From IMG/VR virus record IMGVR_UViG_3300023297_000003: a stretch of 64,000 bases of DNA; one strand, written 5' to 3'. Shown here piece by piece: positions 9,275-47,872 of the stretch. Numbering within the stretch: the stretch's first letter is position 1; the number at the start of each line of letters is the position of its first letter. The position numbers and the translations under genes are program-made. The notes under the pieces are model-generated. The model saw only the letters and a program-made list of their open reading frames with translations, did no database searches and had not been told where the DNA came from. The stretch is from a virus (taxonomy: Duplodnaviria; Heunggongvirae; Uroviricota; Caudoviricetes).

Positions 9275-9299
9275 AGTTCCTCTACCAAAGGTAAGGGAC

Positions 9300-12200
9300 A
9301 TGAAAGCCGCTTTCCTAGTCGCTACACATCACAGGCCGCAGCTTCTCCGAGCGTGCCTGGACTCTCTCCAGCAACAGCAGGGCATTCCTGACGGTTGGGA
9401 TGTTGAGATCTTGGTGGCGGGAGAGGCTGAGGACCCTGGCAAAGAGGTGGCCGCTGAAGCAGATGTTCCCTATCAGGTTGTTGCCGATCCCAAGGTCACG
9501 GTGAAGCTGAACGCCTTGGTGGCCAGGACCGACGCTGAACTGGTGATGCTGGCGGATGATGATGACCTTCAACCTCCGAACAGGGCTGCGGCTTCTATCC
9601 AAGCCTTCTTGGAGGGTTATGAATGGTCGGGCACTCGAAACTGTTACTTCTATGACATGATCCACGATTGTGTAACCTTCTGGAAGGGGGACAAGGATGG
9701 CTTGGTGGGCACCTCTATGTCCTACACCACGAAGCTCCTGAGGGAAATCCGAGGGTGGCCCCCAATCCCGAATGGCAAGGATGCCAAGGCTGCATATAGA
9801 ATCCGCAGGCTCCCCCGGAAACCAGCGCACAAGGATATCACTTCGTTGCTCGAAGGGATGCCCGTATGCCTTCAGCATGGGGAAAACATCTGGGACCGGC
9901 CTGTGCTGGAGTCAGAACGCTCAATGGTCCGGGGTCGCTTTATAGTGACAGGTAAAGGAAACAGAGCAACATGGGCGGAGTCTGAAGCTAAGGAACTCCT
10001 TCGCCGGGGGCTAGGTGTTTTGGACGGCACGTGGGTAGCTCCAAACCCCCCTAAAGAAGCACCCAAAAAGATTTCGGCTACTCCCCAAGTGATCACACCC
10101 AGACCACCCCCCATCCTCGTACCCCAAGGCAACGTCCCGCTCACATGTGTCCCCGGAGGGGCCGGACAACAAGCCTTCACTGACGGTCTTTTGAGCATCG
10201 GGTTCAAAGCAGTCTCTCGTGCAGAAGCGGATGAGGCACTCCGTTCGGGTCAACCCGTTTTGTTCCATGGCTGGTGGACAGGAGCACGAAAACTCTGTGC
10301 CTACTACCCCAAACTTGCACACATTCTGTGGCACAGTGGCTTTGCTGGCTCTGATCTGATGGGTGAGGGAGGAACATTAAGCGAAGCTCTACGGATGTCA
10401 GCCAGTGGACAGGGCCGGTTCCTGTGGCTTGAAACCCGAGATGTTCTTCCTGTAGGAGCTACCCGAATGGTCCCCGTATGGGACTCCCAACGACTTCAGT
10501 CATTAGGGAGGGCACCAAAAAAGCCAGGCTCTGTGATGGTGGGGTTTTGCGGACATTACCCTTCGAATGCTAAAAATATTTTGGCATGCGTTGCAGGAGC
10601 AACCCAGACCAGTGGACACTTACACCTGTCAACGTCATCAACATTAGAACTGCGGGGGGCTGCCGTTCAGGCTCTTCTCGTTGCCGCTCAGAGTTGGAAA
10701 ACATACGGTGTACTTTCCCGTGGAGCAGCCGTCAAACTCGTGTCCTCTATGGACGTGATGATCCACACGAGCCTGTCGGACACCTGGCCTTACCTCGTGA
10801 TGGAGGCCATCTACGCAGGCACCCCCGTAGTTTTGTGTGATACTATTCGTTGGGTCAAGGATCTGCCAAAATGGGCACAGGAACTATGTTGTGTCCGACC
10901 AGCCATTGCTAGTGATGAAATCCGAAGGCTTACCCAGCATCTTCTTGATCATCCGGCGGACAGGATTAAACTGCTTCATGCCCAAAGGGAACTGCTTGAC
11001 AGGTTGTCCCTCCAGTACAAGGCGGAGGCTACTGACATTCTGCAAGGGTTAGGCTTCCCCATGATGCCACAGGAACCCGTCCCAGCGGCGGTCACAGCCC
11101 CAGCTTTGTCGCTTTCCACTCCTGCCCTGGTAAACCCTCCCGTACACCCTATTAGGGTAAATCCTCCTGCACACCCGGCAAAGGAATCAGAAATGGCAAA
11201 TGGCAAACAGGATCTGCAAAACTTTGTGACCGTATTTGTTATCTCTAGCGGAGAACCATCAACACCGACCTGTCACAAACACTTAGACAACCAGGATTCC
11301 CTATTTCTTCGGGAGGATATTCGTAATGTAGCCCCTATGTGGCGGGCCTTCCAGCAGATGATGGATCGTTGTCAGACACCCTATTACGTTCAGATCGATG
11401 CTGATATGCTATTAGATCCCTCTGCTATCAGACGCCTTTATGAAAAGATCACGACAACGAAAGCTGCTCAGTATGTTGGGTGGTTGTGGGACGATGACGT
11501 TCACCGACCCATTCAGGGTGTCAAAATATACAATCACGCTATCTGTAAACAGTACCCGTACAAAGAAGCCCTCTCCTGTGAGATGGGCCAGAATGAGCTA
11601 CTGCGTACAAACGGCCACGAGATCGTGGCCGACAACTCCCCTGGTAGAGTCCGCAAAGAAACTAATGGGGTGTGGACCGAGGAATACACCCGGACTGCCG
11701 AGATCTTTGGAACGCATCTCGCATCCCAGACACCCGAGATGGCTTTCGTCCGTTGGAAGCGACTGATGCAGAAACATCGGAAGTTATCCTGGATGGGTTG
11801 GTTGTCAAAGTACCCTCAGATGTTGATGCAGGAGTGGTTGGCTGAACCAGGCAACGAAATTCGCCAGGCCAAGTTTTTGGGTGCTACCGTGGGGCTGACT
11901 GGGGAACAACCGGAGGACAAGGAGATGGACTTCCGGGCTGCAGATCAGGACTACCGTCGCCTTGCTTCCTACGTAGGGGAGTTCAGCCATGGACCCCGTG
12001 AGATGACCCTTTACCTCACAGACAAGTGCAATTTCAAATGTGTGTTCGGTACAACCCCCTGCAAACGACAAACTCCCGAAGGCGTGCCTCAACAAGGGGA
12101 TATCACCCCCGCAACCCTGACGACAGCTTTGAACAGGTATCCCACCATCCGGGGCTGCTGTATCGCTGGTTTCGGGGAACCGCTGCTGCATCCACAGTTG

Positions 12201-12908
12201 CCGGAGTTGATTCGCATCTGCGGGTCACATAAGGTTGTTGTCGGGCTCATCACCAACGGCAGTCTCCTCTGGAAAAATGCTGCGGAGCTTCAGGGGCTTC
12301 CCATCAGCTACCTTTCCGTGTCCTTGAATGCCACCACGGCGGAGGAGCACCAGGCCACGACCCGCACCGATTTCTGGCTCAAGGTATTAGAGGGGATCCG
12401 ATTAATGAGTGCCTCCCCGATCCGCTCGGGAGTGTCCTATGTCGTAACGAATAGCAATGCACACAGGATCCCTGCCCTCCTAGCTCTGGCAAAGGAACTT
12501 AGAGTTCAATTCGTACACCTGATCAATGTGTTGCCTCACAATGGCCCATTGGACAAGGACTTCTTGAACGACGTCTTAACCCCCAGATCTGACAAAGCGT
12601 TAGCGGAAATAGCACACGCCAAAACTTGTCCGGGGGCGGAATTGGTCGAGGTGTGGCCTGAGGTGATCCTGGGGCCAGAGGGTGCCCCAGGCAAATGTAT
12701 GTCACCGATGGTCTCTCTGGGGTTGGACGCCAAGGGAGCGATTTCGGGGTGCAGACGGATAGATCCCCCATCTGAGTCCTCCGGTAACATACGGCTCGGA
12801 GGTACTTGGCAGAACAACCACTATGCTCAACTGCGGCTGTCCGTAACGGGGGACCAGCCGAACGCTCACCCGGCGTGTCAGGGTTGCTTTGGAAACTGGA
12901 AGGGATAG
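9300..12908 (+). CDS. Multidomain GT2 + GT4-like + GT2-like + radical SAM/SPASM-like protein (about 1200 aa)
   Basis: THHRPQLL..CLDSL and LADDDD; HTSLSDTWPYLVMEA.YAGTPVV; YVQIDAD; CNFKCVFGTTPC, GFGEPLLHP, ITNG; C-terminal CMSP..SGC..CQGC. Confidence 0.85.
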   Translation: MKAAFLVATHHRPQLLRACLDSLQQQQGIPDGWDVEILVAGEAEDPGKEVAAEADVPYQVVADPKVTVKLNALVARTDAELVMLADDDDLQPPNRAAASIQAFLEGYEWSGTRNCYFYDMIHDCVTFWKGDKDGLVGTSMSYTTKLLREIRGWPPIPNGKDAKAAYRIRRLPRKPAHKDITSLLEGMPVCLQHGENIWDRPVLESERSMVRGRFIVTGKGNRATWAESEAKELLRRGLGVLDGTWVAPNPPKEAPKKISATPQVITPRPPPILVPQGNVPLTCVPGGAGQQAFTDGLLSIGFKAVSRAEADEALRSGQPVLFHGWWTGARKLCAYYPKLAHILWHSGFAGSDLMGEGGTLSEALRMSASGQGRFLWLETRDVLPVGATRMVPVWDSQRLQSLGRAPKKPGSVMVGFCGHYPSNAKNILACVAGATQTSGHLHLSTSSTLELRGAAVQALLVAAQSWKTYGVLSRGAAVKLVSSMDVMIHTSLSDTWPYLVMEAIYAGTPVVLCDTIRWVKDLPKWAQELCCVRPAIASDEIRRLTQHLLDHPADRIKLLHAQRELLDRLSLQYKAEATDILQGLGFPMMPQEPVPAAVTAPALSLSTPALVNPPVHPIRVNPPAHPAKESEMANGKQDLQNFVTVFVISSGEPSTPTCHKHLDNQDSLFLREDIRNVAPMWRAFQQMMDRCQTPYYVQIDADMLLDPSAIRRLYEKITTTKAAQYVGWLWDDDVHRPIQGVKIYNHAICKQYPYKEALSCEMGQNELLRTNGHEIVADNSPGRVRKETNGVWTEEYTRTAEIFGTHLASQTPEMAFVRWKRLMQKHRKLSWMGWLSKYPQMLMQEWLAEPGNEIRQAKFLGATVGLTGEQPEDKEMDFRAADQDYRRLASYVGEFSHGPREMTLYLTDKCNFKCVFGTTPCKRQTPEGVPQQGDITPATLTTALNRYPTIRGCCIAGFGEPLLHPQLPELIRICGSHKVVVGLITNGSLLWKNAAELQGLPISYLSVSLNATTAEEHQATTRTDFWLKVLEGIRLMSASPIRSGVSYVVTNSNAHRIPALLALAKELRVQFVHLINVLPHNGPLDKDFLNDVLTPRSDKALAEIAHAKTCPGAELVEVWPEVILGPEGAPGKCMSPMVSLGLDAKGAISGCRRIDPPSESSGNIRLGGTWQNNHYAQLRLSVTGDQPNAHPACQGCFGNWKG

Positions 12909-28779: not shown

Positions 28780-29112
28780 ATGGCGGAAAAGGACGACACC
28801 AAAGAACTGAAGATGTGGTACGCTTTTGGGTTTCGGTCTCCCACGCAGTCACACCACCTCTATGAGGGGCGTATCGAGGCCGAGACCATAGAGGACGCCT
28901 TCGACTTCGTGTTCCGCCACGCTGACAACAGGAACAGGTTCAAACGCTATGTCGGTTTTTGGGTGCAGGAAAACATGATGAGCCGCACAGGGGATCTGCG
29001 TGTCGGATGGATCACCCCCTCAAGATACATGTCCCCCTCCTACCAGTGGAGATTACGAAAACCCGAAGACGTCCCGTTGAGGACGGAGGTGACAGCAAAT
29101 GAAAACCCCTGA
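28780..29112 (+). CDS. Hypothetical protein, first gene of the helicase operon
   Basis: RBS after the motif; overlaps the helicase start. Confidence 0.65.
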   Translation: MAEKDDTKELKMWYAFGFRSPTQSHHLYEGRIEAETIEDAFDFVFRHADNRNRFKRYVGFWVQENMMSRTGDLRVGWITPSRYMSPSYQWRLRKPEDVPLRTEVTANENP

Positions 29113-31078
29113 AACTCGTACCTTGCGCCCCTATCAGCAGGACTGTTTCCGGCACTTGTTCCGGCACGTCACCAACGGGAGACGAGAGGTAGTGCTGAGT
29201 GGTCCCACCGGAAGCGGCAAATCCCTCATGGTGACCTATCTGGCCGAACGGTTGCTCAACACGGAGATGTTTCGGTTAGCCGTTGTTCTCGCCCCACAGT
29301 GTCAGATTTCGGATGCCTTCATCTATGAGGGAGACCTGAAGATCCGCCCCAGCGAGGAAGTACCCCAGGGAAGAGTGTCTGTTGGGGGGCCACTCACGGT
29401 AGCGGCCCTTCAGTGGTTCCAAGTTCGGGATGGTAAGCGCCGGGAGTACCTCAAAGATCACGTCAGAAGTGTCCGCCCGGTTAACCGGGTGCTGGTCACG
29501 ACACATATGGCGGCGGCAGTCTGGTTTGCCCCTGACCTTCTCCCCAAGGACATGACCGGGCGTCTCCTGATCGTGGACGAGGCACACCACACAGCCCCCG
29601 AGAACGGTGTGGGTACCTTCGTCAAGGAGTGGCAGACCCGAGGGGGCACAGTCATTCACGTGACTGCCACGCCCTTCCGCACGGACGGTGATACCCTTAT
29701 TGATGACAACGCCCCCCGCTGGGACCGCACGCTGGCATCCCACATGGAGGGAGGCCAGTACGCACCGGGGCAGCTTTCTTTCCGCACACATCCTCTGGGC
29801 ATAAAGGCGAACACGACGAATCAGCTTGCTGGCGAGTCCATGACCAGTACTGCCCCACTCCAAACCTGTATCGACATCGTGGACTTGTGGGTCAAGGACA
29901 AGCGCCCCAAGGCTGTCATCATCGTCCCCGCTAACAGTGCCGATGCGTGGTCTAAACGGCTGGAGGACGAGTTCACCAGGCAGGGAGCGAGGGTACACAA
30001 CGCCATCAAGGGGGGGCAACGAGCCACCGACGCCCTCAAGCACCTCCTCCGAAAGGAACGTCGGGTCCGAGCCTACGAGGACTCCACCGTAGACGTGATC
30101 CTTGCCTGTGCCCGGTTCAATGAGGGAACCGACTGGCCCCTGTGCAGCCATGTCTACAACATCGGCCTGACCAGTTCCTTCGTCCGCATCCTTCAACGCC
30201 TGGGGCGGGCGTTGCGCTTCAAGGGAGCCATCGATGGCTACCCCGAGGAGCACAAGAACACGGCCACCTTCACCTTCCTGGTACCCTGTGTGACCGAGAA
30301 CTTGTTTGCCCAGTTCGAACAGCAGCACCAGGATCATGCCTTCCTGACGGCGTGCTTCATGGCGGATTTTAGTGTCGGCCAGGACTACATCCTGGGGGAC
30401 ATCCAGCGACGTTTGGAGGACATCGGGCACAAGCGTCAGGGCAAAAAGCATCGCCCGGCGGAGGAAACCTGGGAGGATGTCACCCAGTTCATCGGGGCTG
30501 ATGTTCAACAGTGCCGGGAGGCCATGGGTCTCATGGTCAAGGCCGTTATCCTTCTCCGTGAGAGTGGGGTCAAGAAACCGACCAACAAAGAGGTGGCCCA
30601 CTACCTGAGGACAGCGATGCGGTTGTCCAAGGAGCAGATGGAACAGGCTGAACGAGCACTGGCGTACAGCATCCTCAAAAAACAAACCCGAGCCTTCTCC
30701 TACTTTCACAAGACCCTGTGGAGGAAGGCCCAGGGCGGGGATTTGTCTGACTACCGCATCATCCGAGAGGAGTTGAGGCCGGTCTTCGACGCAGTGATCC
30801 AAGAGTTCGAAGGGGCGACGGCGGACATTGGTCAGGCGGACAGGGTCGTTGACTTCCTGTCCCGTTTCGAGGGCAGGACAGCGAAGCAGGTCGCTGAACG
30901 TCTGAAAGCTGCGATACCTCCGCCACAGTTCACCTTGGCTCAGATAGATGACGCCTTGATGTCCTACTTTGAGGAGCACAAAGTTGAACCCCCTATTGAT
31001 AACACCGACGCTTCCCCTCACTTCAAGCTCCCCCCGATCACAATCAACTGGAAGCAGGTCTACGGGCAGATGCCATGA
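29099..31078 (+). CDS. SF2 DEAH-box helicase (ResIII-like)
   Basis: LRPYQ, GPTGSGKS, IVDEAHH, TATPFRTD, NEGTDWP, QRLGRALR. Confidence 0.92.
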   Translation: MKTPETRTLRPYQQDCFRHLFRHVTNGRREVVLSGPTGSGKSLMVTYLAERLLNTEMFRLAVVLAPQCQISDAFIYEGDLKIRPSEEVPQGRVSVGGPLTVAALQWFQVRDGKRREYLKDHVRSVRPVNRVLVTTHMAAAVWFAPDLLPKDMTGRLLIVDEAHHTAPENGVGTFVKEWQTRGGTVIHVTATPFRTDGDTLIDDNAPRWDRTLASHMEGGQYAPGQLSFRTHPLGIKANTTNQLAGESMTSTAPLQTCIDIVDLWVKDKRPKAVIIVPANSADAWSKRLEDEFTRQGARVHNAIKGGQRATDALKHLLRKERRVRAYEDSTVDVILACARFNEGTDWPLCSHVYNIGLTSSFVRILQRLGRALRFKGAIDGYPEEHKNTATFTFLVPCVTENLFAQFEQQHQDHAFLTACFMADFSVGQDYILGDIQRRLEDIGHKRQGKKHRPAEETWEDVTQFIGADVQQCREAMGLMVKAVILLRESGVKKPTNKEVAHYLRTAMRLSKEQMEQAERALAYSILKKQTRAFSYFHKTLWRKAQGGDLSDYRIIREELRPVFDAVIQEFEGATADIGQADRVVDFLSRFEGRTAKQVAERLKAAIPPPQFTLAQIDDALMSYFEEHKVEPPIDNTDASPHFKLPPITINWKQVYGQMP

Positions 31079-31782
31079 ACAAGTTCCGCAAAAGACTGGC
31101 CGAAATGGGGCTGGTGGAACCCGTATCCGAATGGTTCCTGGACTACGTGGCCCGTATGACACGGTACATGGAGGAAAATGACGGGAGGACACCCCCTCAG
31201 ACGTATGCCTGCGAAGATGGGTACAAGCTAGGGTCGAAAACCAACTCCATCCGAACTAGCTACCGCCGAGGAACTGGTCATAAGCTTACGTCCGAGATGA
31301 TTCGGATGCTCGATGACATTGGCTTCCCGTGGAACGGGAACGGGTGGTTCAAAGGTGTCCTTCGCCGTCTGATTGAGTACAAGGCGGAACACGGTCACTG
31401 CGCCCCCCCTGGCACGCATGTCCACCATGACGGATACAAGCTGGGGAAACGAGTACAAGTGATCCGTTCCGGAAGGAGGGGCATAGGTAGTCTCAAGGTC
31501 ACCTCCGAGATGGTCGAGCAGCTTGACGCTATAGGGTTTGTCTGGGACGCCTGCAACACTGGCAAATGGTGGCCAGAGTTCTACGCCCACATCAAAGCGG
31601 TGCTGGAAAAGTACCCCGTGGGCCACATCCCGAAGGACTACGTGTGCCCCGATGGGTACAAGTTGGGAGAAAAGGCGAGCCATGTTCGATGCGGGAGACG
31701 AGGCAAAGGTTTCCTCCAAGTGATCCCCGAGATGATCGCCAAACTTGATGCCCTCGGTTTCCTCTGGGTGGTTCCGAGATGA
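31075..31782 (+). CDS. Helicase-associated (HA) repeat protein, 3 repeats
   Basis: W....L.EY...HG...P..Y...DGY.LG......R......LD.IGF.W repeated three times. Confidence 0.85.
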   Translation: MNKFRKRLAEMGLVEPVSEWFLDYVARMTRYMEENDGRTPPQTYACEDGYKLGSKTNSIRTSYRRGTGHKLTSEMIRMLDDIGFPWNGNGWFKGVLRRLIEYKAEHGHCAPPGTHVHHDGYKLGKRVQVIRSGRRGIGSLKVTSEMVEQLDAIGFVWDACNTGKWWPEFYAHIKAVLEKYPVGHIPKDYVCPDGYKLGEKASHVRCGRRGKGFLQVIPEMIAKLDALGFLWVVPR

Positions 31783-32705
31783 ACAAGTTCCGGCAACGCC
31801 TCAGTGTGTTGGGTTATGTGCCTTCCTGGCCAGCTTGGTTTGACCTCTTCCTGGAGAAACTGAAGGAATACAAAAAGGAGCGTGGGCACTGTCAGGTGCC
31901 TAAATCCTACAAGTGTCCCGAGGACGGGTACCATCTGGGGGAACGGGTAATGGTTGTTCGGTCAGCTAAGAGAGGCAAAGGGAACGTCACACTGACCGAC
32001 GAGATGACCAAGGAACTCGACGCCATCGGTTTCGTATGGGATCCGAGGGAGTGGTTCCCTGAGTTCCTGGAGAAACTGAAGGAATACAAAAAGGAGCGTG
32101 GGCACTGTCAGGTGCCTAAATCCTACAAGTGTCCCGAGGACGGGTACAAGCTCGGGGGCAGAGTAGATAATGTCCGACAAGCTAAGAGAGACAAAGGGAG
32201 ACTCAAAATAGCCCCCGAAATGATCAAGGAACTCGACGCCATTGGGATCGTGTGGGATCCGAGGGAGTGGTTCCCTGAGTTCCTGGTGAGGCTGAGGGAA
32301 TACAAAAGGGAGCATGGCCACTGTCAGGTGCCGACGTCCTACAAGTGGCCCGAGGACGGATACCATCTGGGGGAACGGGTAAGGGGTGTTCGGTCAGCTA
32401 AGAGAGGCAAAGGGACGGTCATCCTGACCGACGAGATGACCAAGGAACTCGATGCCATCGGGTTCGTGTGGGATCCGAAGGAGTGGTTCCCTGAGTTCCT
32501 GGTGAGGCTGAAGGAATACAAAAAGGAGCACGGGGACTATCAGGTGCCCACATCCTACAAGTGTCCCGAGGACGGGTACAAGCTCGGGACACGGGTAAAG
32601 GGTGTCCGACAAGCTAAGAGAGGCATAGGCAGGATCAAAGTGACTCCCGAGATGATCAAGGAACTCGACGCCATCGGTTTCGTGTGGGAGGTCATCCGTG
32701 CGTAG
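31779..32705 (+). CDS. HA repeat protein, 4 near-identical repeats
   Basis: Four 72-aa HA units. Confidence 0.9.
   Translation: MNKFRQRLSVLGYVPSWPAWFDLFLEKLKEYKKERGHCQVPKSYKCPEDGYHLGERVMVVRSAKRGKGNVTLTDEMTKELDAIGFVWDPREWFPEFLEKLKEYKKERGHCQVPKSYKCPEDGYKLGGRVDNVRQAKRDKGRLKIAPEMIKELDAIGIVWDPREWFPEFLVRLREYKREHGHCQVPTSYKWPEDGYHLGERVRGVRSAKRGKGTVILTDEMTKELDAIGFVWDPKEWFPEFLVRLKEYKKEHGDYQVPTSYKCPEDGYKLGTRVKGVRQAKRGIGRIKVTPEMIKELDAIGFVWEVIRA
31836..32699 (+). repeat. Coding tandem repeat, 4 x 216 bp
   Basis: Units start at 31836, 32052, 32268 and 32484. Confidence 0.9.
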
Positions 32706-33702
32706 GAGGAGCAACAAATTCAGACTGCGGCTCGTTGAGCTTGGGCGGATGAAACCTTGGCCAGCGTGGTTCGATGAGTTCCACTCCCACCTTCAGACGT
32801 ACAAGGCGGAGCACGGGGATTGTGAAGTGCCCCACAACTACAAGTGTGAAGACGGGTACCGCTTAGGGAACAAGGTGGGGCGAATCCGTTCCGCAAGGAA
32901 GCGCCCATCAAACCGTGTGTTGACGGAGGAGATGAGTACTGCCCTCGATGCCATCGGTTTTGACTGGCTGGCTCCAAAAGATCGCTGGTTCCAAAAGTTC
33001 CGGGTTCGTCTGGTGGAATATATGACCGCTCACGACGGCCAAAACCCACCCGTTCCTTATGAGTGCCCCGATGGATACACCCTGGGTAAAACTGCCGCCG
33101 CTGTTCGGGCAGCGAAACGGGCAAGGGCACTGAATAAGAAGGCGTTCCGGCAACTCACGGATGAGATAATTGCTGACCTGGACGCACTTGGATTTGAATG
33201 GGAACCCTCGGAATGGTTCCCCGACTTTGTGCAGCGTTTGCGTGAATACAAGGCGGAACATGGGAACTGTTCGATCCCTGTCAAATTTGAATGTGCGGAT
33301 GGACACAAGTTAGGCCTGAGGGTCCAACGCATCCGAACGAGCATCCGCCGGTTGGAGGAGGGCAGCGATGAGTCGATGCCCCTCCAGGTCACCCCAGAGA
33401 TGGTCTTAAAACTGGATGCCCTCGGGTTCGAGCGGGACCGGAACCTGACGGGCAAATGGTTCCCCAAGTACCTCAGTCACCTGACGAAGTTCTACCGGGA
33501 GCACGGCGACAGCATGGTGCCCAGGGGATATTGCTGTCGGGATGGGTACAAGTTAGGGGCCATGACGAACAGCGTTAGAGAGGGCCGTAGGGACGCAACA
33601 GGTCGGAGGAAAATCACCCTGCCCATGGTTGCTGATCTAGCTGCCCTCGACTTTATGTGGGATGTTCGAATAACGGGATCATCTCGGCCACCTACAGAGT
33701 AG
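32698..33702 (+). CDS. HA repeat protein, 4 repeats
   Basis: NKFR leader plus four HA units. Confidence 0.85.
   Translation: MRRRSNKFRLRLVELGRMKPWPAWFDEFHSHLQTYKAEHGDCEVPHNYKCEDGYRLGNKVGRIRSARKRPSNRVLTEEMSTALDAIGFDWLAPKDRWFQKFRVRLVEYMTAHDGQNPPVPYECPDGYTLGKTAAAVRAAKRARALNKKAFRQLTDEIIADLDALGFEWEPSEWFPDFVQRLREYKAEHGNCSIPVKFECADGHKLGLRVQRIRTSIRRLEEGSDESMPLQVTPEMVLKLDALGFERDRNLTGKWFPKYLSHLTKFYREHGDSMVPRGYCCRDGYKLGAMTNSVREGRRDATGRRKITLPMVADLAALDFMWDVRITGSSRPPTE
33675..33702 (+). promoter_or_regulatory. Promoter-like motif GGGATCATCT-N12-GAGTAG
   Basis: Exact motif; its TAG is the stop codon of the upstream gene. Confidence 0.8.
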
Positions 33703-33721
33703 TCTTGGTAGGAGGTCGTCC

Positions 33722-34607
33722 GTGGGCAAAAGGAACAACAAATTCCGTGAACGTCTCGCCAAGCTTGGGCTGATGAAACCTTGGCCAGCGTGGTTCGATG
33801 TGTTCCTGGCACATCTGAAGGCGTACAAGGAAGAACACGGGGACTGTAAGGTGCCGCAGCTTTACAAGTGTACTGACGGGTACACATTGGGGAACAGGGT
33901 CGGGGACATTCGCAGGTTTCGACAAGGGAAAAGTGTTCGGACAGTGACTCCCTCAATGGTGCCTGTACTGGATCAACTCGGTTTCCTTTGGGAGATCCCC
34001 TGTTGGTTCGACGAGTTCCTCCGGCGTCTGAAGGACTATAAAGCCGAGTACGGCCATTGTCAGGTGCCCACCCAGTACAGATGTCAGGACGGGTATAGAC
34101 TTGGCCCAAAAGTGAATGCTGTTCGGACAGGCAAAAGGCACAAAGTGGGCGTCCAAATCACCCCGAGCAGGGCGGAGAAACTTGAGCAACTAGGTTTCCT
34201 GTGGGATGTCCCGACAGAGTGGTTCCCGGAGTTCCTGGAACATTTGAAGGCGTACAAGGCCGTGCATGGCCGTTGTCAGGTGCGTGGCACCTATGTATGC
34301 GATGATGGCTACAAACTAGGCCATCACACAGCGGGGGTACGAAATCACCGGGTCTTGACCCCCACTATGCGGAGCCAACTCGGTGCTCTCGGCTTTGTCT
34401 GGGACGCCACCACGAAAGGGCAGTGGTGGCCGGAGTTCCTTTGTCACCTCAGAGAGTACATGGACGCACACGGGGGACAGACACCCCCCCAAAAATACGT
34501 CTGCCCCGGCGGATGGCCGTAAACTGACACCCACTCAGATCAACCAGATTGATGTCCTCGGTTTCGTTTGGGATCTCCGCAATCAGAAGAAGGACAACAC
34601 CCCATGA
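33722..34607 (+). CDS. HA repeat protein, 3 repeats plus a broken 4th (in-frame stop at 34522; tail continues in another frame to 34607)
   Basis: CPGGWP* then RKLTPTQINQIDVLGFVW in a shifted frame. Confidence 0.75.
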
Positions 34608-35257
34608 CCACCCCGCAGGCTGACATCCATTCCTTCCCCCCTGAACAACACCCGGAGAAGCACAAGACCAGGACCACGACCCTCGACCTCCTCCGTGACC
34701 CAGAGTGCCCCACGAACCTCTTCTACGACGGGCACCTGACCAGGGACTGGATGGAGTTGTGCGGTGATGCCCCTGACGCTACCTGTGGCCTCCTCCTGGA
34801 CGAAGGCGTCCTTGCCCCCGACCATGGCCGATACATCGGCGTCAACACCAACCAGGGGATCCTTGACCGCAACGCCACCCACTACAACGACGACCGCACC
34901 GAGTGGCGTTGCGGCGACATGTCCCGGCTCCTCCTGGACCTGGACGACCCGACCCTCCGCAACATCGGCGTCCTCGTGTTCGACGGGTTTCGCAGTCCCA
35001 GCAACCTCCACCTGGAGAGCATCCTCCTTCCGATGTTCGCCTTTGCCCAGTCCCAACAGCAGCGCCTGGGACAATTCCTCCTGGTCATCAACCTAGCCCT
35101 CCGGGGCAACGCCAGCGCTCCCTTGGAAAAGGCGAAGCGGCAGTTCGAGGCCATCGTCCACAAACACTGCGGCGTCCAGGTGCCGAAGCAAGCGTTCACT
35201 ACGTACCGCAGCCGAGTCATTCCGATGCAACTCCTCCGCCTTTCCTACGGCTGGTAG
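34604..35257 (+). CDS. Rossmann-fold methyltransferase-like protein
   Basis: MELCG..., YIGVN....L..N, WRCGDM, GVLVFDGF resemble class I MTase motifs I/II/III/IV; divergent. Confidence 0.45.
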   Translation: MTTPQADIHSFPPEQHPEKHKTRTTTLDLLRDPECPTNLFYDGHLTRDWMELCGDAPDATCGLLLDEGVLAPDHGRYIGVNTNQGILDRNATHYNDDRTEWRCGDMSRLLLDLDDPTLRNIGVLVFDGFRSPSNLHLESILLPMFAFAQSQQQRLGQFLLVINLALRGNASAPLEKAKRQFEAIVHKHCGVQVPKQAFTTYRSRVIPMQLLRLSYGW

Positions 35258-35267
35258 GAGGTCGTCC

Positions 35268-35987
35268 GTGGGCAGGAGTAACAGCAACAAATTCCGTAAA
35301 CGCCTCACTGAGCTTGGGCGGATAAAACCTTGGCCAGCGTGGTTCGATGTGTTCCTGGGGGAAATCAAAGCCTATCAGAAATGTCATGGACATTGCCGAG
35401 TGCCGCAGTCCTACCTGTGTGACGACGGGTACAGGTTGGGTGCCCGTGTAAGTAGTGTCCGGCATAACAAGTCCAGACACCTTCCCGAAATGATCGCTGA
35501 ACTTGATGCCCTGAAGTTCGTTTGGGTTGTGTGCGAATGGTTCCCTGAATTCCTGTCCCACATGAAGGAGTACAAAAAGACCCACGGGCACTGCCGTGTC
35601 CCAAAGTCCTACAAATGTCCCGATGGTTACGCCCTTGGGATGAGGGTATCTGATGTCCGGACAAGAAAAAAGGACAAGAAACGTGTAAGCCCTACCTCAG
35701 AGATGATAGCGGCGCTGGACCTTCTTGGGTTCGTCTGGAATGGGAACGAGTGGTTTCCCCAATTCCTGAAGAGGCTGAAGGAGTACCATGCCAAATTCGG
35801 GGACTATTCTCCGGCGCAATCCTACAAATGCCCCGATGGCTACCAACTCGGTGTTCGAACAAACAGTATTCGTTCATCCCGTAATGGTGGGGGTCAGGTC
35901 AAGGTGACTCCCGAAATGGTCACCGAACTGGACGCTCTGGGTTTTGTCTGGAGTCTCAGGGGATCATCCAAGCCCACCCCTGAGTAG
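35268..35987 (+). CDS. HA repeat protein, 3 repeats
   Basis: NKFR leader plus three HA units. Confidence 0.85.
   Translation: MGRSNSNKFRKRLTELGRIKPWPAWFDVFLGEIKAYQKCHGHCRVPQSYLCDDGYRLGARVSSVRHNKSRHLPEMIAELDALKFVWVVCEWFPEFLSHMKEYKKTHGHCRVPKSYKCPDGYALGMRVSDVRTRKKDKKRVSPTSEMIAALDLLGFVWNGNEWFPQFLKRLKEYHAKFGDYSPAQSYKCPDGYQLGVRTNSIRSSRNGGGQVKVTPEMVTELDALGFVWSLRGSSKPTPE
35960..35987 (+). promoter_or_regulatory. Promoter-like motif GGGATCATCC-N12-GAGTAG
   Basis: Motif match; its TAG is the stop codon of the upstream gene. Confidence 0.75.
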
Positions 35988-36010
35988 TCTCCAGTACAAG
36001 GAGGACGAAC

Positions 36011-36346
36011 ATGAAGAACAAGACACCTGAGACGCCCTGGTTCCCCGAGTTCCTGAGTCGCCTGACGGCCTACCGAAAGGCACACGGTCACTGTGTGGTG
36101 CAACGCCTTGGGAGGACGAACAGGACATCCGAGAAGCCCTGGCTCCCCAACTTCCTTTCCCACCTGACGGCGTTCAAGCGGGCGCACGGCCACTGTGCCG
36201 TGCCCCACAACTACGTCAGCCCGGACGGCTACAAGCTGGGAAGCCGTGTCGGAACGGTCCAGGAGGGGCAGCACAAGGTCAGGATGACCCCGGAAAGGAT
36301 CGCCCAGTTGAACGCTCTCGGATTCACCTGGGACACCAAGGAGTGA
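36011..36346 (+). CDS. HA repeat protein, 1.5 repeats
   Basis: Half repeat followed by a full repeat; the 5' leader is duplicated internally. Confidence 0.8.
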   Translation: MKNKTPETPWFPEFLSRLTAYRKAHGHCVVQRLGRTNRTSEKPWLPNFLSHLTAFKRAHGHCAVPHNYVSPDGYKLGSRVGTVQEGQHKVRMTPERIAQLNALGFTWDTKE

Positions 36347-36969
36347 AAATGGAACACAAAACACCACTCGAACTCGTTCAGCGTATCGTTGCACACCACG
36401 GACCGATCCTCGGGAAGCAGGTCGTGTCCCTGTGCGCCAGCGTGGGCTACACCAACAAGCGCTCCACGGGAGCGGTCCTGTTCAACGCCCGCAGAGCGAA
36501 GACCCTGACCAAGGACGCCCATGGCCGATGGACCTGTCCTAAGTCGAAAACGACTGGACAAGCCTGACACGACAGAGGTATCCTTCAGCAATGGACACGA
36601 GGAACCACATCGATAGTGCCTTCATATCCGAGCGGGTGACGCCCGCTGGAGGAGGATGCTATGGACCGTGGAACCCGCCGCCAGAGGACAGCAAATGTCA
36701 TCCGTTCACGTCTTGAAATCTACAGCGCTCCCGAGGATGTGGAGCCACATCGGTACGCCAAGACCCCATCGTTAGCCTGCCACTGCCGCAAGCGCACTTT
36801 CGGTCGTCCTCGTATGAGCCGGGGCATCTGTGACATCGGGTGCCGTGACCGGATCTATCGGTGGCGACGAGAAACACGAGAGTTTAGGACATGGGCACGA
36901 TGCCAGGGTGTGGATTGGGAGGACGACAGCGTCACCCTGATCTTTGTCCCCCGGAACAAGTGGGTGTGA
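36343..36969 (+). other. Two small hypothetical ORFs (36343-36567, 36661-36969)
   Basis: RBSs; co-oriented. Confidence 0.6.
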
Positions 36970-37025
36970 AAGTCCTTGCCGGTCAGAGATCGTCGTGTAG
37001 AGTGGGGCTGTCAGAGGAGGACGTT

Positions 37026-38141
37026 ATGCCCAAAAGACTCACGTTGGATGACGCAGACATTGTTCGTCGGTACCAAGCGGGGGAACTGGAGTTGCACATT
37101 GCTAAGGCACTAGGTGTTTCAGCACCTGTGATTCATCGACGGTTGGCTAAAGCAGATGTTTCTTTCCGCACCCACAGTGAGGCTGCAACAATCGCTCAAG
37201 GCAAACGAGATGCAAAAACAACGGAAAGCCTTCCCGCTGAGTATCTGTCAGGACGTTCTGTCTCTGAGTTAGCGAAGGCAACGGGTTTCAGTCGCAACTG
37301 GGTGCGTATCCGTTTAGAGCGGGCTGGTGTTCCTCTACGGGGGGTACAGGAGGCACATACTCTGATTTGTCACAAGACCTTCCCTACCACAGAGGAGTCC
37401 CTTGAATTAATCGATGGTTTACTTCTTGGTGACGCCTGGTTGGAAAAAACAGGTGGCAGTGAGGGTCGTCTGGGACTAGCACAAAGAGCAGACCGAAAGG
37501 AATGGCTTGAACAGGTTCAAAGGGAACTTAGGGCCGGGGGTGTTAAAAGCAACATAAAACCACGTCCGGCAAGAATCGGTCACATTGGGAAACAGGTTCT
37601 CCGAGGTAACCCGAGTTTACAGTTAAGGACACTGAAATACAAAACATTTACGGACCAGCGCCTCCGTTGGTACCCAAAGGGTAAAAAAATTATTCCTCTG
37701 GACATCCGGCTAACCCCCCGAGCGTTAGCGCATTGGTACTGGGGTGATGGTGGGCTGATTAATACAGGGTATGGGGTAGCCTTTTGCACGGACGGTTTCA
37801 CCTGGGAGGATGTCGAGTTTCTAGCCTCTAGACTGCGGCTACTTTATGGTTGGTCTCCTCGTGTGCAGAGCCACAGAGGGAATCCTAGACTGGTCCTAAG
37901 CCAACGAAAACACCGACTGGAACTGGTGGCCCTAACGGAACCTTTTTGTCCTGATTGCTTCCGATACAAGCTTCAGGTGAGGGGTAAAGCTCCCGCAAAA
38001 ATTGATCAAGTCGAAAAGGAACTCCGTCAACTGAGGGGGCAAGGCTGGACACAAAAACGCATTGCGGAACATTTTCAAATGACCCCGGCATGGGCTGGGT
38101 GGGCCTGCCGACGACTAGGGCTAGAGAAGGAGTCAAACTAA
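37026..38141 (+). CDS. Free-standing LAGLIDADG homing endonuclease with HTH segments
   Basis: IDGLLLGDAW and LAHWYWGDGG; FCTDGF; N- and C-terminal HTH-like segments; own GAGGAGG RBS. Confidence 0.88.
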   Translation: MPKRLTLDDADIVRRYQAGELELHIAKALGVSAPVIHRRLAKADVSFRTHSEAATIAQGKRDAKTTESLPAEYLSGRSVSELAKATGFSRNWVRIRLERAGVPLRGVQEAHTLICHKTFPTTEESLELIDGLLLGDAWLEKTGGSEGRLGLAQRADRKEWLEQVQRELRAGGVKSNIKPRPARIGHIGKQVLRGNPSLQLRTLKYKTFTDQRLRWYPKGKKIIPLDIRLTPRALAHWYWGDGGLINTGYGVAFCTDGFTWEDVEFLASRLRLLYGWSPRVQSHRGNPRLVLSQRKHRLELVALTEPFCPDCFRYKLQVRGKAPAKIDQVEKELRQLRGQGWTQKRIAEHFQMTPAWAGWACRRLGLEKESN

Positions 38142-38825
38142 TGGAAACTGTCATAATAGAAATAAGAGCAGGTGAGGGAGGTCGGGATGCCTCCTTATTG
38201 GTTCATGAACAGTACGGTGTTTATGTGCGATGGGCACAGAGGAGGTCCCTTTGACGTGGTGTTGCTGGAGGACCGTCCCGGTTTCCTTGCCTTCCAGGCG
38301 GTCGGGAAGGGGGCTGTAAGGGCTTTTCGGCATGAAGCCGGTGGTATGAGATGGCAGCGGGTACCCCCCACGGAGAAACGGGGCAGGACACACACGTCAA
38401 CAGTTACTATCGCTATACTCTCTCTCGTGGACGAGCAGACCGTCAAACTGAACGAGCGAGACCTGGAGTGGCAGGCGACCCGTGGCTCAGGTCCTGGAGG
38501 CCAACATCGGAATAAAACCTCGTCTGCAGTAATCCTCACACACAAACCCACGGGTCTGGTTGTCCGAGTAGAGAACGAACGATCACAGTACCGGAATTTA
38601 CAAACGGCGAAGGCAATCCTGTCTGCCCGATTACAGGAGGCAGAGGCATCCTCTCAGTTGGACCAACGTAACCAGCAACGGAAAGCTCAGGTGGGGAGAG
38701 GCATGATGTCCGACAAGGTACGAACTATCGCTCTCCAGAGGGATCAGGTCACAGATCATCGACTGGGGAAACGTATCTCAGCCGTGAAGTATCTGAGGGG
38801 TGAGTTGGACAAACTGGTGGGCTAG
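38141..38825 (+). CDS. Short RF1-type peptide chain release factor, predicted to need a +1 frameshift (join 38141-38251, 38253-38825; about 227 aa)
   Basis: 0 frame METVIIEIRAGEGGRDA...; +1 frame RWQRVPPTEKRGRTHTST, GSGPGGQHRNKTSSAV, QVTDHRLG. Confidence 0.88.
38240..38255 (+). promoter_or_regulatory. prfB-type +1 programmed frameshift cassette AGGAGG-TCC-CTT-TGA-C
   Basis: Internal SD, 3-nt spacer and CTT TGA C match the architecture of the RF2 site. Confidence 0.85.
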
Positions 38826-39169
38826 TTGGATGCGACCTCGGGGAGTACGTCCACCGGGGTGTGCGTTTCCTCCAGGTTGTCGTACATCGGAGGCGCATCC
38901 CCAACGGCGTCCATTGGGGTGTGCTCGTCCTGGATCACGTCCACCGGGGTGGGCATCTCTTCCAGAAGGGTGTCTTCGGTGGGGACGGTGTCCAGGGCTG
39001 CGACAGTCTCGACGGTTCCGTCCGTCAGGGGCACGTCGCCCTCGATGAGGTCTGCCAGGGTGTCCTCGGCAACAGTCACGTCCTCGGCATTCTCTTCCGT
39101 GGTGTTACAGGACAAGACGAATGCTGCCGCCAAGATCAGTGTCAACAGTGCAATCAGAATCCTTTTCAT
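38822..39169 (-). CDS. Acidic lipoprotein with short xTP(V/M)D repeats
   Basis: MKR + hydrophobic stretch + VLSC lipobox. Confidence 0.75.
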   Translation of the reverse strand: MKRILIALLTLILAAAFVLSCNTTEENAEDVTVAEDTLADLIEGDVPLTDGTVETVAALDTVPTEDTLLEEMPTPVDVIQDEHTPMDAVGDAPPMYDNLEETHTPVDVLPEVASN

Positions 39170-39456: not shown

Positions 39457-40878
39457 CTAGAATGTAACAGGCATCAAGTTTGAGGCTGTGCCGATCCTTG
39501 GTAACCCAAGTGCCTCGGTAGTAAGCTCCCGGCCCAACGGTAAGGGCTCGGATGACGGTTGCTCTTGCCGTCCGAATCCCAAGGAACTGGTCCGCTTAAT
39601 ACGGAATCGCTCTCTTAGCACTCGTTTTACGCCTCGTGGGTGATCATTAGCTTTGATGTGTTCGTCTCCAGAACGTCTGAGCACACCAGCGCTTCCTACC
39701 CAATCAGCATGAGCTTTCCTGCCGCACGAGCGGCAACGGAACCTTATTGAACTTCGGTTTCCTCGATGAACATAACCACAAGAAGGACACTCCTGCGACG
39801 TGTAAGCAGGGTTCACTTTCTTTGTTGGAGCTTTCCTTTCCAAGTTGATCTGTAACGCCCTGTAAGCAAACCTTTTTTGACCCCTACAACCTCGAAGATC
39901 GAGATCTTCGACCACGAACACCGTCTCGGGATGACGAACGATAAGGGTGTTTACCACACGACCCGTCTCTGTCTTGATCAACCCACTCAATTTGCTCTCA
40001 AGGTGATCCAACTTTGGGCTGTTATCCTTCAAATCCTGCCGTTGGCGATTTGCTCGAAGATTTCTGACACGAGCGTAGAGTTTGTCGAACTTAGGTTTGA
40101 CGTGTTCACCGTAAATCACTCCATCTGATGTAGCTGCAAGGACGTTCAGACCAACGTCAACGCCCAACTTAGGCCAACCTTCCTGTGCTTCGGGAACAAC
40201 CCATTCAGCCTTACTGACCGCCTCAAAGCGCCAAAAGCCTCGCTTGGTTTTGCGGGCTGAGATCCCTTTGCTGACCTGATCAGCTTGTTGAATGTAAAGA
40301 TTCCCAACGAGAGGCAACCAGACGGACTTACGAGCTTCTAACGAAGACACCCTCAACCAGAAGTCCCCGAGAGGGGCTTTAGATGCGTCCTCCAACCGAG
40401 CCGTCATCTCCGACAACCGCATGGGCAGGTTGTCCCTTACGATAGGCTTATTACCTCCGTAGGTGTCCAACAGGGTGTGGTAGGCGTCGAGATGGTCTTG
40501 GGTGATAAACTTCCAGGGCTTACTGATGGCTTTTAATCCGATGACACAGAGTGCTTTGGCGTCCTGTTCGGTGAGGGTACCCTCGTGCTTGAGGTTGGTG
40601 ATAGTCGGTTTCAACTTGCGGGCGTAAGTGGCTTTGGCCCAAGCGCTCACAATTTGGATAGCGTGGTCTCGTGCGATCTTTTCGATTTGGGACGTAAGGT
40701 TGGTGGCCCGTGGGAAGAACGTTTGTTTGGCGGCTTTCGGGAGATTATAGACCTGCTGGTCAAGCATCGTTTGTACGCAAATGCGGACGTACTTGACGTA
40801 TGCTTTGTGTAGGGCTTCCAACTTATCGATCTTGGACTGATTGGTATCCTTGTGAAGTCGGAAGATGCGACACTTCAT
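39457..40878 (-). CDS. tnpB: TnpB, second family (473 aa); probable tnpB-only IS with unresolved ends
   Basis: LGVDVGL, FVVEDL, SQECPSCG..CRSCG, HAD; TTCCTG-N7-CAGGAA hairpin upstream of the start. Confidence 0.9.
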   Translation of the reverse strand: MKCRIFRLHKDTNQSKIDKLEALHKAYVKYVRICVQTMLDQQVYNLPKAAKQTFFPRATNLTSQIEKIARDHAIQIVSAWAKATYARKLKPTITNLKHEGTLTEQDAKALCVIGLKAISKPWKFITQDHLDAYHTLLDTYGGNKPIVRDNLPMRLSEMTARLEDASKAPLGDFWLRVSSLEARKSVWLPLVGNLYIQQADQVSKGISARKTKRGFWRFEAVSKAEWVVPEAQEGWPKLGVDVGLNVLAATSDGVIYGEHVKPKFDKLYARVRNLRANRQRQDLKDNSPKLDHLESKLSGLIKTETGRVVNTLIVRHPETVFVVEDLDLRGCRGQKRFAYRALQINLERKAPTKKVNPAYTSQECPSCGYVHRGNRSSIRFRCRSCGRKAHADWVGSAGVLRRSGDEHIKANDHPRGVKRVLRERFRIKRTSSLGFGRQEQPSSEPLPLGRELTTEALGLPRIGTASNLMPVTF

Positions 40879-46513: not shown

Positions 46514-47872
46514 ATAGTCAACAATGTTGTAGCAATTTCTTACTTTCATTGTCTTTTATGGTGGCGGGGACTATAGACTCCCGCCCTTCGTCAAACAAAC
46601 CATCAGAAGTCCAAAAGAACCCTTTACGATTTATTTGACTTAGCCGTACCCACCATTGGATCTCAAAGAGATCGAGCTTCAAGTTGGAAGCCGCATTCAA
46701 ATCAGCATCTATGGTAAAGCCACATTTGCCACATTTGAACGTCTTACCTTTCCTGTTACTCTTACGGACCCAGCCACACTCGCTACACCTCTGAGACCTA
46801 AACTCGTTCGCAACCTCCCGAAAAAGGAAACCTTCCTCCTCAGAGAGACGAACAAGTTTGTCTTTGATCAAAGTATAGCGCCAATGTGACATATAGCGTG
46901 AACTCCGCTTTGATAAGCGGAGATGCTTGATTTTCTCAAAACGAACTTCTTTCACGTCCTTGAAGTTGAGTTGATTCAAGGACCAATGGATGTAGTTCTT
47001 GCGATGCTCTTGGGTACGACGAAAACCATTCGACCCCTTTTGCTTACGAGCAAGTTTTGCTTGGATCGTTTGGAGGGTATGCCCATGAGGACAACGTTTG
47101 GTTGCTTCTCCATTTGAGAGAGTCAACGCAGTTGTGATACCTTGGTCTGCACCAACTATCTGACTTCCTGAGGCGCTTTTGTTTGGCACTTCGTAAATTA
47201 GATGTAGTGTGTCCTCAGAGATCCTAACACATACTTTCAGGAGTCCCCTAGTCTGCCACTTGTTAGAGCAACGGGTCTTTTTGATAGGAATTCTAATGTG
47301 TGGGATTCCAAGGGATGAGAGTTGAACAAACAAAAAGATGTCTGTCTCTTGGAAACCCACAAAACGAGAATCTAGTTCCAGATTGATTCCTGAAGCGTCC
47401 GGTTTCACAAGAGGTTGCCGGTCAACCCTTGACTGGAGGTACTGGTACTTCTTACCTTCTCGCTGAAGGTTAGCCAGCACGAAAAGTTGTTTCCGTCGTT
47501 TCTCCGTGGCTGCCTTGAGCATCATAACGGCTTGTTTACCAGCAGCTTGTTGAAGCCTTGCTGATATCTCTGTTGGGAACTGCTTGAGGTACTTTGTGGG
47601 TAGAAGGCTCTTGCCTTTGAAATCCAGTCTGTTTGAGCTTGGGAAAAAGTCCCACGTTGGAAAGCCATTCTCCCATATGTCGTTTAGAATGCGTTGGACA
47701 AAAAGGCGATACTCTCCGATAAGTTCCCCTACCAATCTCACCTTACCTGGGTTTGCAAACCGCAAGCTATGAGCAGAAGACCGAATCATTTCGCTACCTT
47801 AAGTTCTCAATCCCATGGTTGCAGTTTACTAAAGAAAAACAAAAAACACAAGCCTTCTTATCAAGGTAAGCT
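46514..47872 (-). mobile_element. tnpB-only IS, copy 2 (1359 bp), inserted into a promoter-like motif
   Basis: Ends shared with 7917-9274; joining the flanks gives TGGATCATCC-N12-GAGTAG. Confidence 0.9.
46518..47789 (-). CDS. tnpB: TnpB, intact (423 aa)
   Basis: IVGADQG, VRFEKI, SQRCSECG..CGKCG, DADLNAASNL. Confidence 0.93.
   Translation of the reverse strand: MIRSSAHSLRFANPGKVRLVGELIGEYRLFVQRILNDIWENGFPTWDFFPSSNRLDFKGKSLLPTKYLKQFPTEISARLQQAAGKQAVMMLKAATEKRRKQLFVLANLQREGKKYQYLQSRVDRQPLVKPDASGINLELDSRFVGFQETDIFLFVQLSSLGIPHIRIPIKKTRCSNKWQTRGLLKVCVRISEDTLHLIYEVPNKSASGSQIVGADQGITTALTLSNGEATKRCPHGHTLQTIQAKLARKQKGSNGFRRTQEHRKNYIHWSLNQLNFKDVKEVRFEKIKHLRLSKRSSRYMSHWRYTLIKDKLVRLSEEEGFLFREVANEFRSQRCSECGWVRKSNRKGKTFKCGKCGFTIDADLNAASNLKLDLFEIQWWVRLSQINRKGFFWTSDGLFDEGRESIVPATIKDNESKKLLQHC

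Follow-up and report, generated by a model that had tools for sequence, protein, structure and literature searches.

In bacterial prfB the frameshift site occupies codon 25/26 of release factor 2 (RF2), within domain 1, and this frameshift is the textbook example of autoregulatory recoding. The mechanism depends on the geometry SD-N3-CUU-UGA-C, where SD denotes a Shine-Dalgarno sequence, and on a +1 shift which competes with termination (PMC12421855). According to a survey published in 2025 and covering over 12,000 genomes, programmed frameshifting is demonstrated for prfB and not for prfA, the gene of release factor 1 (RF1), and TAG is absent from 8,164 prfB motifs (PMC12421855); in the GeneTack clusters, too, prfB is the sole release factor listed. 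As for phages, huge phages were reported to encode RF1 and RF2 (Al-Shayeb 2020, PMC7162821) and RF1 was tied to TGA-recoded phages (Borges 2021 preprint), with no frameshift mentioned in either work. The full texts searched, among which most subscription journals are missing, yielded no report of frameshifting in a phage gene or in one for an RF1-type factor. In the present study 64,000 nucleotides of a Caudoviricetes virus (IMG/VR record IMGVR_UViG_3300023297_000003), in the following called the window, were analyzed with regard to positions 38141-38825, which, judged by sequence, a predicted structure and the analogy with prfB, quite probably encode one 227-residue RF1-type factor that is made by a programmed +1 frameshift and gauges termination capacity.

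The true start of the gene is ATG 38141-38143 (+), which in the sequence as read overlaps by one base with TAA 38139-38141 of the preceding LAGLIDADG gene. The elements of the locus are the following:

38127..38132, + strand: ribosome-binding site AAGGAG, read directly, 8 nt before ATG 38141
38141..38251, + strand: first open reading frame (ORF0), 37 codons in frame 0, defined by translation, RF1 alignment and comparison of frames among homologs
38240..38245, + strand: internal Shine-Dalgarno-like AGGAGG (codons Arg35-Arg36), 3 nt (TCC) before the slip codon
38249..38255, + strand: shift site CTT TGA C, with Leu CUU 38249-51 for the P site, UGA for the A site and C as weak context
38253..38825, + strand: +1-frame open reading frame, residues 38-227 and TAG stop, comprising the rest of domain 2, domain 3 (GGQ) and domain 4
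38364..38372, + strand: PPT, residues 75-77, at the position of the PxT 'anticodon' of RF1, from alignment to RF1
38496..38504, + strand: GGQ catalytic motif, residues 119-121, invariant in a 41-sequence alignment

ORF0 translates into METVIIEIRAGEGG...RRSL and stops at TGA 38252-54; its 3' end reads CAG AGG AGG TCC CTT TGA C, and the full cassette AGGAGG-TCC-CTT-TGA-C covers 38240-38255. From 38253 the +1 frame is open for 190 codons up to TAG 38823-25, and one +1 step at CTT-T gives the joined product (P0001) of 227 amino acids. The motif GGAGGNNNCTTTGA / GGAGG-N3-CTTTGA occurs once in the 64-kb window, compared with 0.06 occurrences expected from shuffles, and SD-like motifs at the equivalent position before the start are also present in homologs. 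An earlier interpretation made from the letters alone, here termed the sequence-only reading, had claimed an ATG at 38141 overlapping the endonuclease TAA, an open reading frame running from it into TGA, and a cassette of the prfB kind; the sequence reads exactly so, and the cassette agrees with that of prfB in content and geometry. It was also right that the list of open reading frames misses the true N-terminus: this mechanical list starts the release-factor gene at the out-of-frame GTG 38172, and the public gene call P0003 (212 amino acids, on a 95% identical contig) likewise begins inside the +1 frame with the N-terminus missed.

The stretch is present in many salt-lake metagenome runs of 2017-2019. 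Contigs from X15 and X16, two runs not flagged as source, cover the site with zero differences, and a variant from the marine run X19 (about 97% identical) spans the whole gene free of indels, whereby the check for an indel proposed by the sequence-only reading was made on independent assembled contigs and revealed none. Since independent assemblies agree and the same break recurs in diverged homologs, an error of sequencing or assembly was rejected, and the frame break is real and a conserved recoding signal.

Homologs were collected in two scans. The IMG/VR scan yielded 80 loci, about 43 of them covering the whole protein, and in about 30 of these 43 the match changes frame exactly at query residue 37; a second scan, with one genome per species, added seven loci with a shift site, and four of its five full-length loci change frame at that same residue. 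Archangium gephyra and Pyxidicoccus fallax possess CTT TAG C, metagenome-assembled genomes (MAGs) of Myxococcales and Acidobacteriota CTT TGA G, and MAGs of Hydrogenophilales and Rhodocyclaceae display CTT TGA C about 10 codons downstream, at a second site. For cassette counts 32 unique homologous DNA sequences, whose proteins are 40-60% identical, were stacked on the interrupting stop, hereafter the gate stop. CTT-T was invariant (32/32), with freely varying flanking codons; the gate stop was TGA in 25, TAG in seven and TAA in none, the base after it was C in 22, and exact CGGAGG occurred in 19, most of the remainder showing less perfect SD-like forms. Three uninterrupted relatives, serving as control, spell R-R-G-L-D/E variously (CGT CGG GGC CTC GAC; AGA CGT GGT CTT GAT; CGC CGC GGC CTG GAA). 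Because in-frame relatives vary the codons for the same residues, CGG-AGG plus CTT represents a constraint at the nucleotide level that is specific to interrupted genes. Conservation of the cassette despite synonymous divergence, which the sequence-only reading had named as a check on its claim, is thus what was observed.

Both frames are constrained as protein. Upstream of the site frame 0 is free of stops and shows 56% mean pairwise identity among 31 homologs, compared with 26-27%, and stops, in the other frames, and downstream only the +1 frame is open and conserved (36% vs 18%). The 120 nearest protein clusters comprise 53 uninterrupted full-length proteins and 67 calls truncated at the 5' end. 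About 40 of these 67 extend far enough to include the site, and almost every one of the 40 displays the +1-frame reading of the cassette, with Phe (TTT) beside residue 38 and, in most, Gly-Gly (from GGAGG) before it; the residue following Phe is D/E for a TGA gate, S for TAG (about 10) and N/K for TAA (2 of about 40). CGG AGG GGT CTT TGA C at the same codon 37/38 was also found in the 485-kb huge-phage genome LR745208.1 (L184), whose record is unannotated. In the protein of LR745208.1 the PxT loop is shorter by four residues (HRVQRT-SNGRIHSS), and this protein may read stop codons differently. Two in-frame TGA each were seen in LR745206.1 (635 kb) and LR756501.1 (735 kb), and L038 and L106 show extra frame breaks past the cassette with their C-termini out of frame, being probably decayed copies or assembly errors.

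Sequence and predicted fold place the product among the class-I release factors of RF1 type, with domain 1 missing, and it is predicted to read UAA and UAG. The RF1 model NF001859 of NCBIfam matches in a single stretch across the junction (residues 3-226 to model positions 105-335 of 347) with 213 bits, against 141 for RF2, 87 for PrfH and 40 for ArfB, and the equivalog cut-offs of prfA are not reached (NF001859, 212.8 vs 400 bits; TIGR00019, 207.6 vs 423). PF00472, the RF-1 domain, is matched in full at residues 98-207 (2.8e-29), and PF03462 (PCRF) in its C-terminal half only (1.2e-17). RF1 chains were the best matches among solved structures, with residues 87-317 of Thermotoga maritima RF1 aligned across the junction at E 3e-49. 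Domain 1, with about 105 residues, is absent: residue 3 corresponds to RF1 residue 87 in T. maritima, 107 in T. thermophilus and 111 in E. coli, and homologs begin at the equivalent place, each with its own ribosome-binding site, which fits the missing domain. In RF1, domain 1 contacts the L11 stalk and release factor 3 (RF3). Residues 130-356 of E. coli RF2 align to residues 6-225 and put the shift site near RF2 residue 160 or so, and because the two sites lie about 135 residues apart in the release-factor fold, the present one is not homologous to that of prfB. The sequence-only reading is upheld on all these points, namely a +1 continuation colinear with RF1 domains 2-4, an RF1-type product (PPT, Gln of RWQRV, GGQ), the absence of domain 1 with a non-homologous site, and its assignment as a phage release factor, the gene sitting in large phages.

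All reading elements of RF1 were found aligned, namely the AGEGGRDA helix tip, the Gln of RWQRV, PPT, THTS and GGQ. AGEGGRDA (residues 10-17) is encoded within ORF0 and takes the position of the RF1 reader of stop-codon U1. An AlphaFold model, built on 40 uninterrupted relatives, reached a mean predicted local distance difference test (pLDDT) score of 89.7, and of 97-98 around the junction; it predicts a strand beta1 at residues 3-10, a helix at 15-34 and a strand at 38-45, with the junction in the loop between the latter two. Compared with ribosome-bound RF1 the model gave a template-modelling (TM) score of 0.88 and a root-mean-square deviation of 2.5 A, with most ribosome-bound RF2 chains TM 0.79-0.84, and with PrfH TM 0.63. 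In this model ORF0 supplies domain 2 with a strand and with the helix that reads the codon, and the downstream open reading frame alone would lack both.

A maximum-likelihood tree of 47 rows was rooted at its midpoint, the branch to the RF2-like rows; canonical RF1 outgroups had been sought in the genome scan, whose hits were small GGQ-only proteins, hence the midpoint root. A group of 33 rows (support 88/89) possesses the codon-37 gate in all members except L004, whose nested position beside L014 indicates, from the sequences, that it lost the gate. TAG and TGA gates are scattered among each other on the tree, whose well-supported branches require four or more changes between them, and L003, the nearest relative of the window gene, is of the TAG type. 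In the sister clade (98/98) six members carry an in-frame TGA about 10 codons further on, at a Gly/Ser-Trp position, and two others of this clade, L035 and L103, carry CTT TGA C at that second place. The in-frame TGA at Gly/Ser-Trp was seen in L009, L011, L025, L026, L029 and L040 (near base 3130; in L025 near 970), and also in L034; the second CTT TGA C site was noted in L035 (3127-3133), L103 and L106, where sister genes have the in-frame TGA. Two in-frame-TGA genes also end in TGA. Genome-wide recoding of TGA was considered for in-frame-TGA phages and rejected for the sampled 60 kb of each of two of them, terminase regions included: the density under code 11 was 0.84-0.95, with its minimum in the block that surrounds the factor gene, many genes there end in TGA, and TerL has no internal stops. 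The internal TGA thus seems, as far as these sequences tell, specific to the release-factor gene in these phages. A scan for same-frame pairs of open reading frames split by one stop was too noisy and was not used. No covariation of the gate codon with a decoding motif was detected, the motifs being the same across all gate types. In the phage genomes of five relatives no second release-factor gene (RF2) was found, each having one RF1-like gene, and one of the five has a small ArfB-like gene.

That a ribosomal +1 shift is the way in which the protein is made appears very probable from the sequence and from the precedent of prfB. Translation would proceed from ATG 38141 to codon 37, with tRNA-Leu on CUU in the P site and UGA in the A site; AGGAGG, 3 nt upstream, would pair with the tail of 16S rRNA and strain the complex, the anti-SD of the host possibly being different, and the tRNA would re-pair on UUU, with decoding resumed at GAC in the +1 frame. 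Because this shift and termination on the A-site stop would be competing events, more factor should be made when termination at the gate codon is slow. In the window gene slow termination at UGA would signify low host RF2 and lead to more factor, and in TAG-type relatives low RF1 activity, that of the product included, would do so. The device would accordingly act as a gauge of termination capacity which doses a phage-supplied UAA/UAG release factor, and a possible logic is that additional RF1-type activity takes UAA stops and frees RF2 for the many UGA stops of the phage. By analogy, a sensor function is plausible; the shift on the ribosome, its efficiency, its dependence on release-factor levels and the codon specificity of the product are what we infer.

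Several points weigh against such a programmed gauge. The gate is dispensable, because 53 of the 120 nearest clusters are uninterrupted, and eight of the 32 cassettes have no clear SD. An autoregulatory loop in the style of prfB would not close here, because the RF1-type motifs predict no reading of UGA; the TGA gate of the window gene would be read by host RF2 and not by the product, and TAG-type relatives would suit such a loop. The interchange of TGA and TAG with no change of motif implies that the identity of the sensed factor may matter little, and sensing of RF2 cannot be the universal role, because the gate is TAG, specific to RF1, in about one fifth of the members, with at least four switches to or from TGA. 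The family data thus complicate both functions offered by the sequence-only reading, an independently acquired sensor for limiting host RF2 and a factor of altered specificity that autoregulates on UGA. Furthermore, GTG GTG TTG follows the cassette in the +1 frame of the window gene, 10 nt past AGGAGG, and from the window sequence alone internal initiation at these codons may be conceivable.

A constant output with no sensing at all would result if the gate were a fixed-ratio attenuator or a tolerated 'saviour' indel, in which a one-base insertion turned CTT-GAN into CTT-TGA-N and only lowered output by a constant factor; the insertion would have survived because the Arg-Arg codons already provided an SD. 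One inserted T would be enough, the in-frame relatives encoding the same RRGL(D/E); a C after the stop (22/32) favours high shifting over tight gating, TGA and TAG replace one another as gates, genes with and without a gate exist side by side, and the gate was lost in L004. Against this stands the 33-row clade, in which the site persists at 40-60% identity, CTT-T never varying and CGGAGG resisting synonymous drift; no TAA gate occurs among the DNA sequences and few (about 2 of 40) among the protein footprints, and gates arose also at a second codon and as in-frame TGA. Because the site was maintained, TAA was avoided and gates arose repeatedly, selection for a stop-dependent step is suggested. 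A constant attenuator is plausible as the origin of the gate and less so as the reason for its long-term maintenance, and as an explanation of the locus we regard it as rather unlikely.

True autoregulation would be restored if the factor had broadened its specificity to UGA, UAG and UAA and terminated at its own gate. The same decoding motifs accompany TGA and TAG gates, as expected of a product that reads both, and the family motifs PPT and HRWQR differ slightly from the canonical PAT/PVT and HRVQR. However, all RF1-defining residues are kept (Pro and Thr of PxT, Gln of (R/W)QRV, HTS and the helix tip GGxDA), the protein is closer to RF1 than to RF2 in sequence as well as in fold, and under the tripeptide rule ascribed to Ito et al. 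2000 Pro-x-Thr reportedly excludes G at position 2. Nothing points to a product specificity adapted to UGA, the decoding motifs being constant, and this explanation was judged improbable.

It is highly improbable that the gene is split, with ORF0 ending at TGA and a fresh start at GTG 38256, for which AGGAGG would serve as ribosome-binding site, and with two polypeptides that assemble: the GTG GTG TTG run of the window would suit it, but a start codon occurs within six codons past the site in only five of 32 homologs, eight of the 32 lack any upstream +1-frame start, re-initiation leaves the invariant CTT-T unexplained, and the break would fall, in the predicted model, into a short loop of one compact domain. 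A lone frame break in a metagenome contig would usually be taken for an error, and two relatives, L038 and L106, have additional breaks; but an indel from assembly or sequencing, or a pseudogene in decay, is refuted by independent assemblies agreeing at the site, by the same break and heptamer in 32 unique diverged sequences, among them a finished Archangium chromosome and the curated 485-kb phage genome, and by protein-level constraint in both frames.

Beyond the window gene, a programmed shift that gauges termination may be given a wider sense, which we put forward only tentatively: large phages and some myxobacteria would have placed a domain-1-less RF1 deliberately behind a premature stop, as a general trans-acting gauge of host termination capacity. 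As an equally tentative part of this interpretation, the family would have reached at least three solutions, a +1 shift at codon 37/38 (UGA or UAG), a +1 shift about 10 codons later, and read-through of an in-frame UGA. If this were true, additional UAA/UAG release would be supplied solely while the release factors of the host are saturated or out of action, as during phage takeover or under RelE-type A-site toxins and other defences, and a natural cross-regulation linking RF2 activity to the supply of an RF1-type factor would be on record for the first time. The family breaks the survey statements on prfA and on TAG and is an instance of the cassette having arisen independently, in a related protein and at new positions. 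It moreover amounts to a natural experiment, the same protein being found ungated or behind UGA, UAG or a read-through UGA, which lets one ask what the gate senses. These genes are cut short by gene callers, and the N-terminus that reads the stop codon is missing from about half of the nearest database entries. A compact RF1 without domain 1 may also serve work on termination and code engineering.

The window uses the standard code, with a code-11 density of 0.93, and TGA is its commonest stop (TGA 49, TAG 24, TAA 12 of 85 gene ends), in some cases within ATGA overlaps. No tRNA or suppressor tRNA was found in the window, and an alternative genetic code was rejected on account of density, stop usage and the lack of a suppressor tRNA. 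Its content comprises a helicase, a DNA polymerase fragment, methyltransferases, HNH and LAGLIDADG endonucleases and TnpB-like proteins, and its relatives are viral contigs of 100-460 kb. The gene upstream (36891-38141, +) encodes a LAGLIDADG_2 endonuclease with several helix-turn-helix domains, which may be translationally coupled to the release factor through the 1-base overlap; relatives have different upstream genes. A search for conserved protein-gene neighbours of the release factor revealed none, apparent clusters being antisense reading frames over the gene itself. In about 24 of the 43 loci the gene lies inside a phage tRNA array, with up to 19 tRNAs within 3 kb. In some arrays there is a tRNA-Leu(GAG), which reads the slip codon; L025 and L026, both of the in-frame-TGA group, have a tRNA-Trp(CCA) adjacent or close to the gene, and no suppressor tRNA was seen in the neighbouring arrays of relatives. 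A phage transfer-messenger RNA adjoins the gene once (L006:2218-2576).

Further observations concern the surroundings. The chromosomal copies in Archangium gephyra (L100) and Pyxidicoccus fallax (L101) carry CGGAGG-GGN-CTT-TAG-C, and the flanks of the former (glycosyltransferase, DUF1569, beta-propeller) are not prophage-like. In the window a small, very acidic reading frame with a lipoprotein-like signal, a hydrophobic N-terminus ending in Cys, overlaps the TAG of the release-factor gene (38822-39169, -), and a TnpB/Cas12f-like gene (OrfB_IS605 and TNB domain; 39457-40878, -) lies just downstream of that gene, with a second transposase-like gene at 46518-47789 (-). A helicase gene followed by seven consecutive genes consisting almost purely of helicase-associated (HA, PF03457) repeats, an unusual tandem family, extends over 29099-36346 (+), and the C-terminal third of a 1214-residue protein (9264-12908, +) matches phage radical-SAM families.

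Among described systems, PrfH (RF-H, TIGR03072) resembles the present protein in lacking domain 1 and in length, but the match to it is far weaker, with 86.7 bits against a cut-off of 166.65 and a TM score of 0.63, and the stop-codon reading motifs kept here are absent in PrfH; RtcB, the partner of PrfH, was not seen next to the gene, whose neighbours are the LAGLIDADG gene, the small acidic reading frame and TnpB. With the release factors of huge and recoded phages the locus shares that RF1 genes are phage-borne and lie among tRNA arrays and translation genes, and LR745208.1 has the same cassette; it differs from those of recoded phages in the standard code of the window and the lack of a suppressor tRNA. 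Canonical RF1 (prfA; TIGR00019/NF001859) agrees in domains 2-4, a PxT-type tripeptide, GGQ, the helix-tip motif and the fold (TM 0.88), whereas the present protein has no domain 1, reaches about half of the equivalog cut-off and bears the family motifs HRWQRVPPTE and SGPGGQHRNKT. The prfB system, finally, is matched in the heptamer, SD content, 3-nt spacing, shift direction and Asp/Glu as first +1 codon, and likewise in being a class-I release-factor gene whose site is conserved across homologs. In contrast to prfB, the gene is of RF1 type and carried by a phage, its site lies in the helix-to-strand loop of domain 2 and not at codon 26 in domain 1, and its product is predicted not to read the UGA gate, while the family includes TAG gates (7/32), a second site and in-frame TGA variants. 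The signal is of a known kind; the gene family that carries it and its position are new, and TAG gates, a second site and read-through variants are features that do not occur in prfB.

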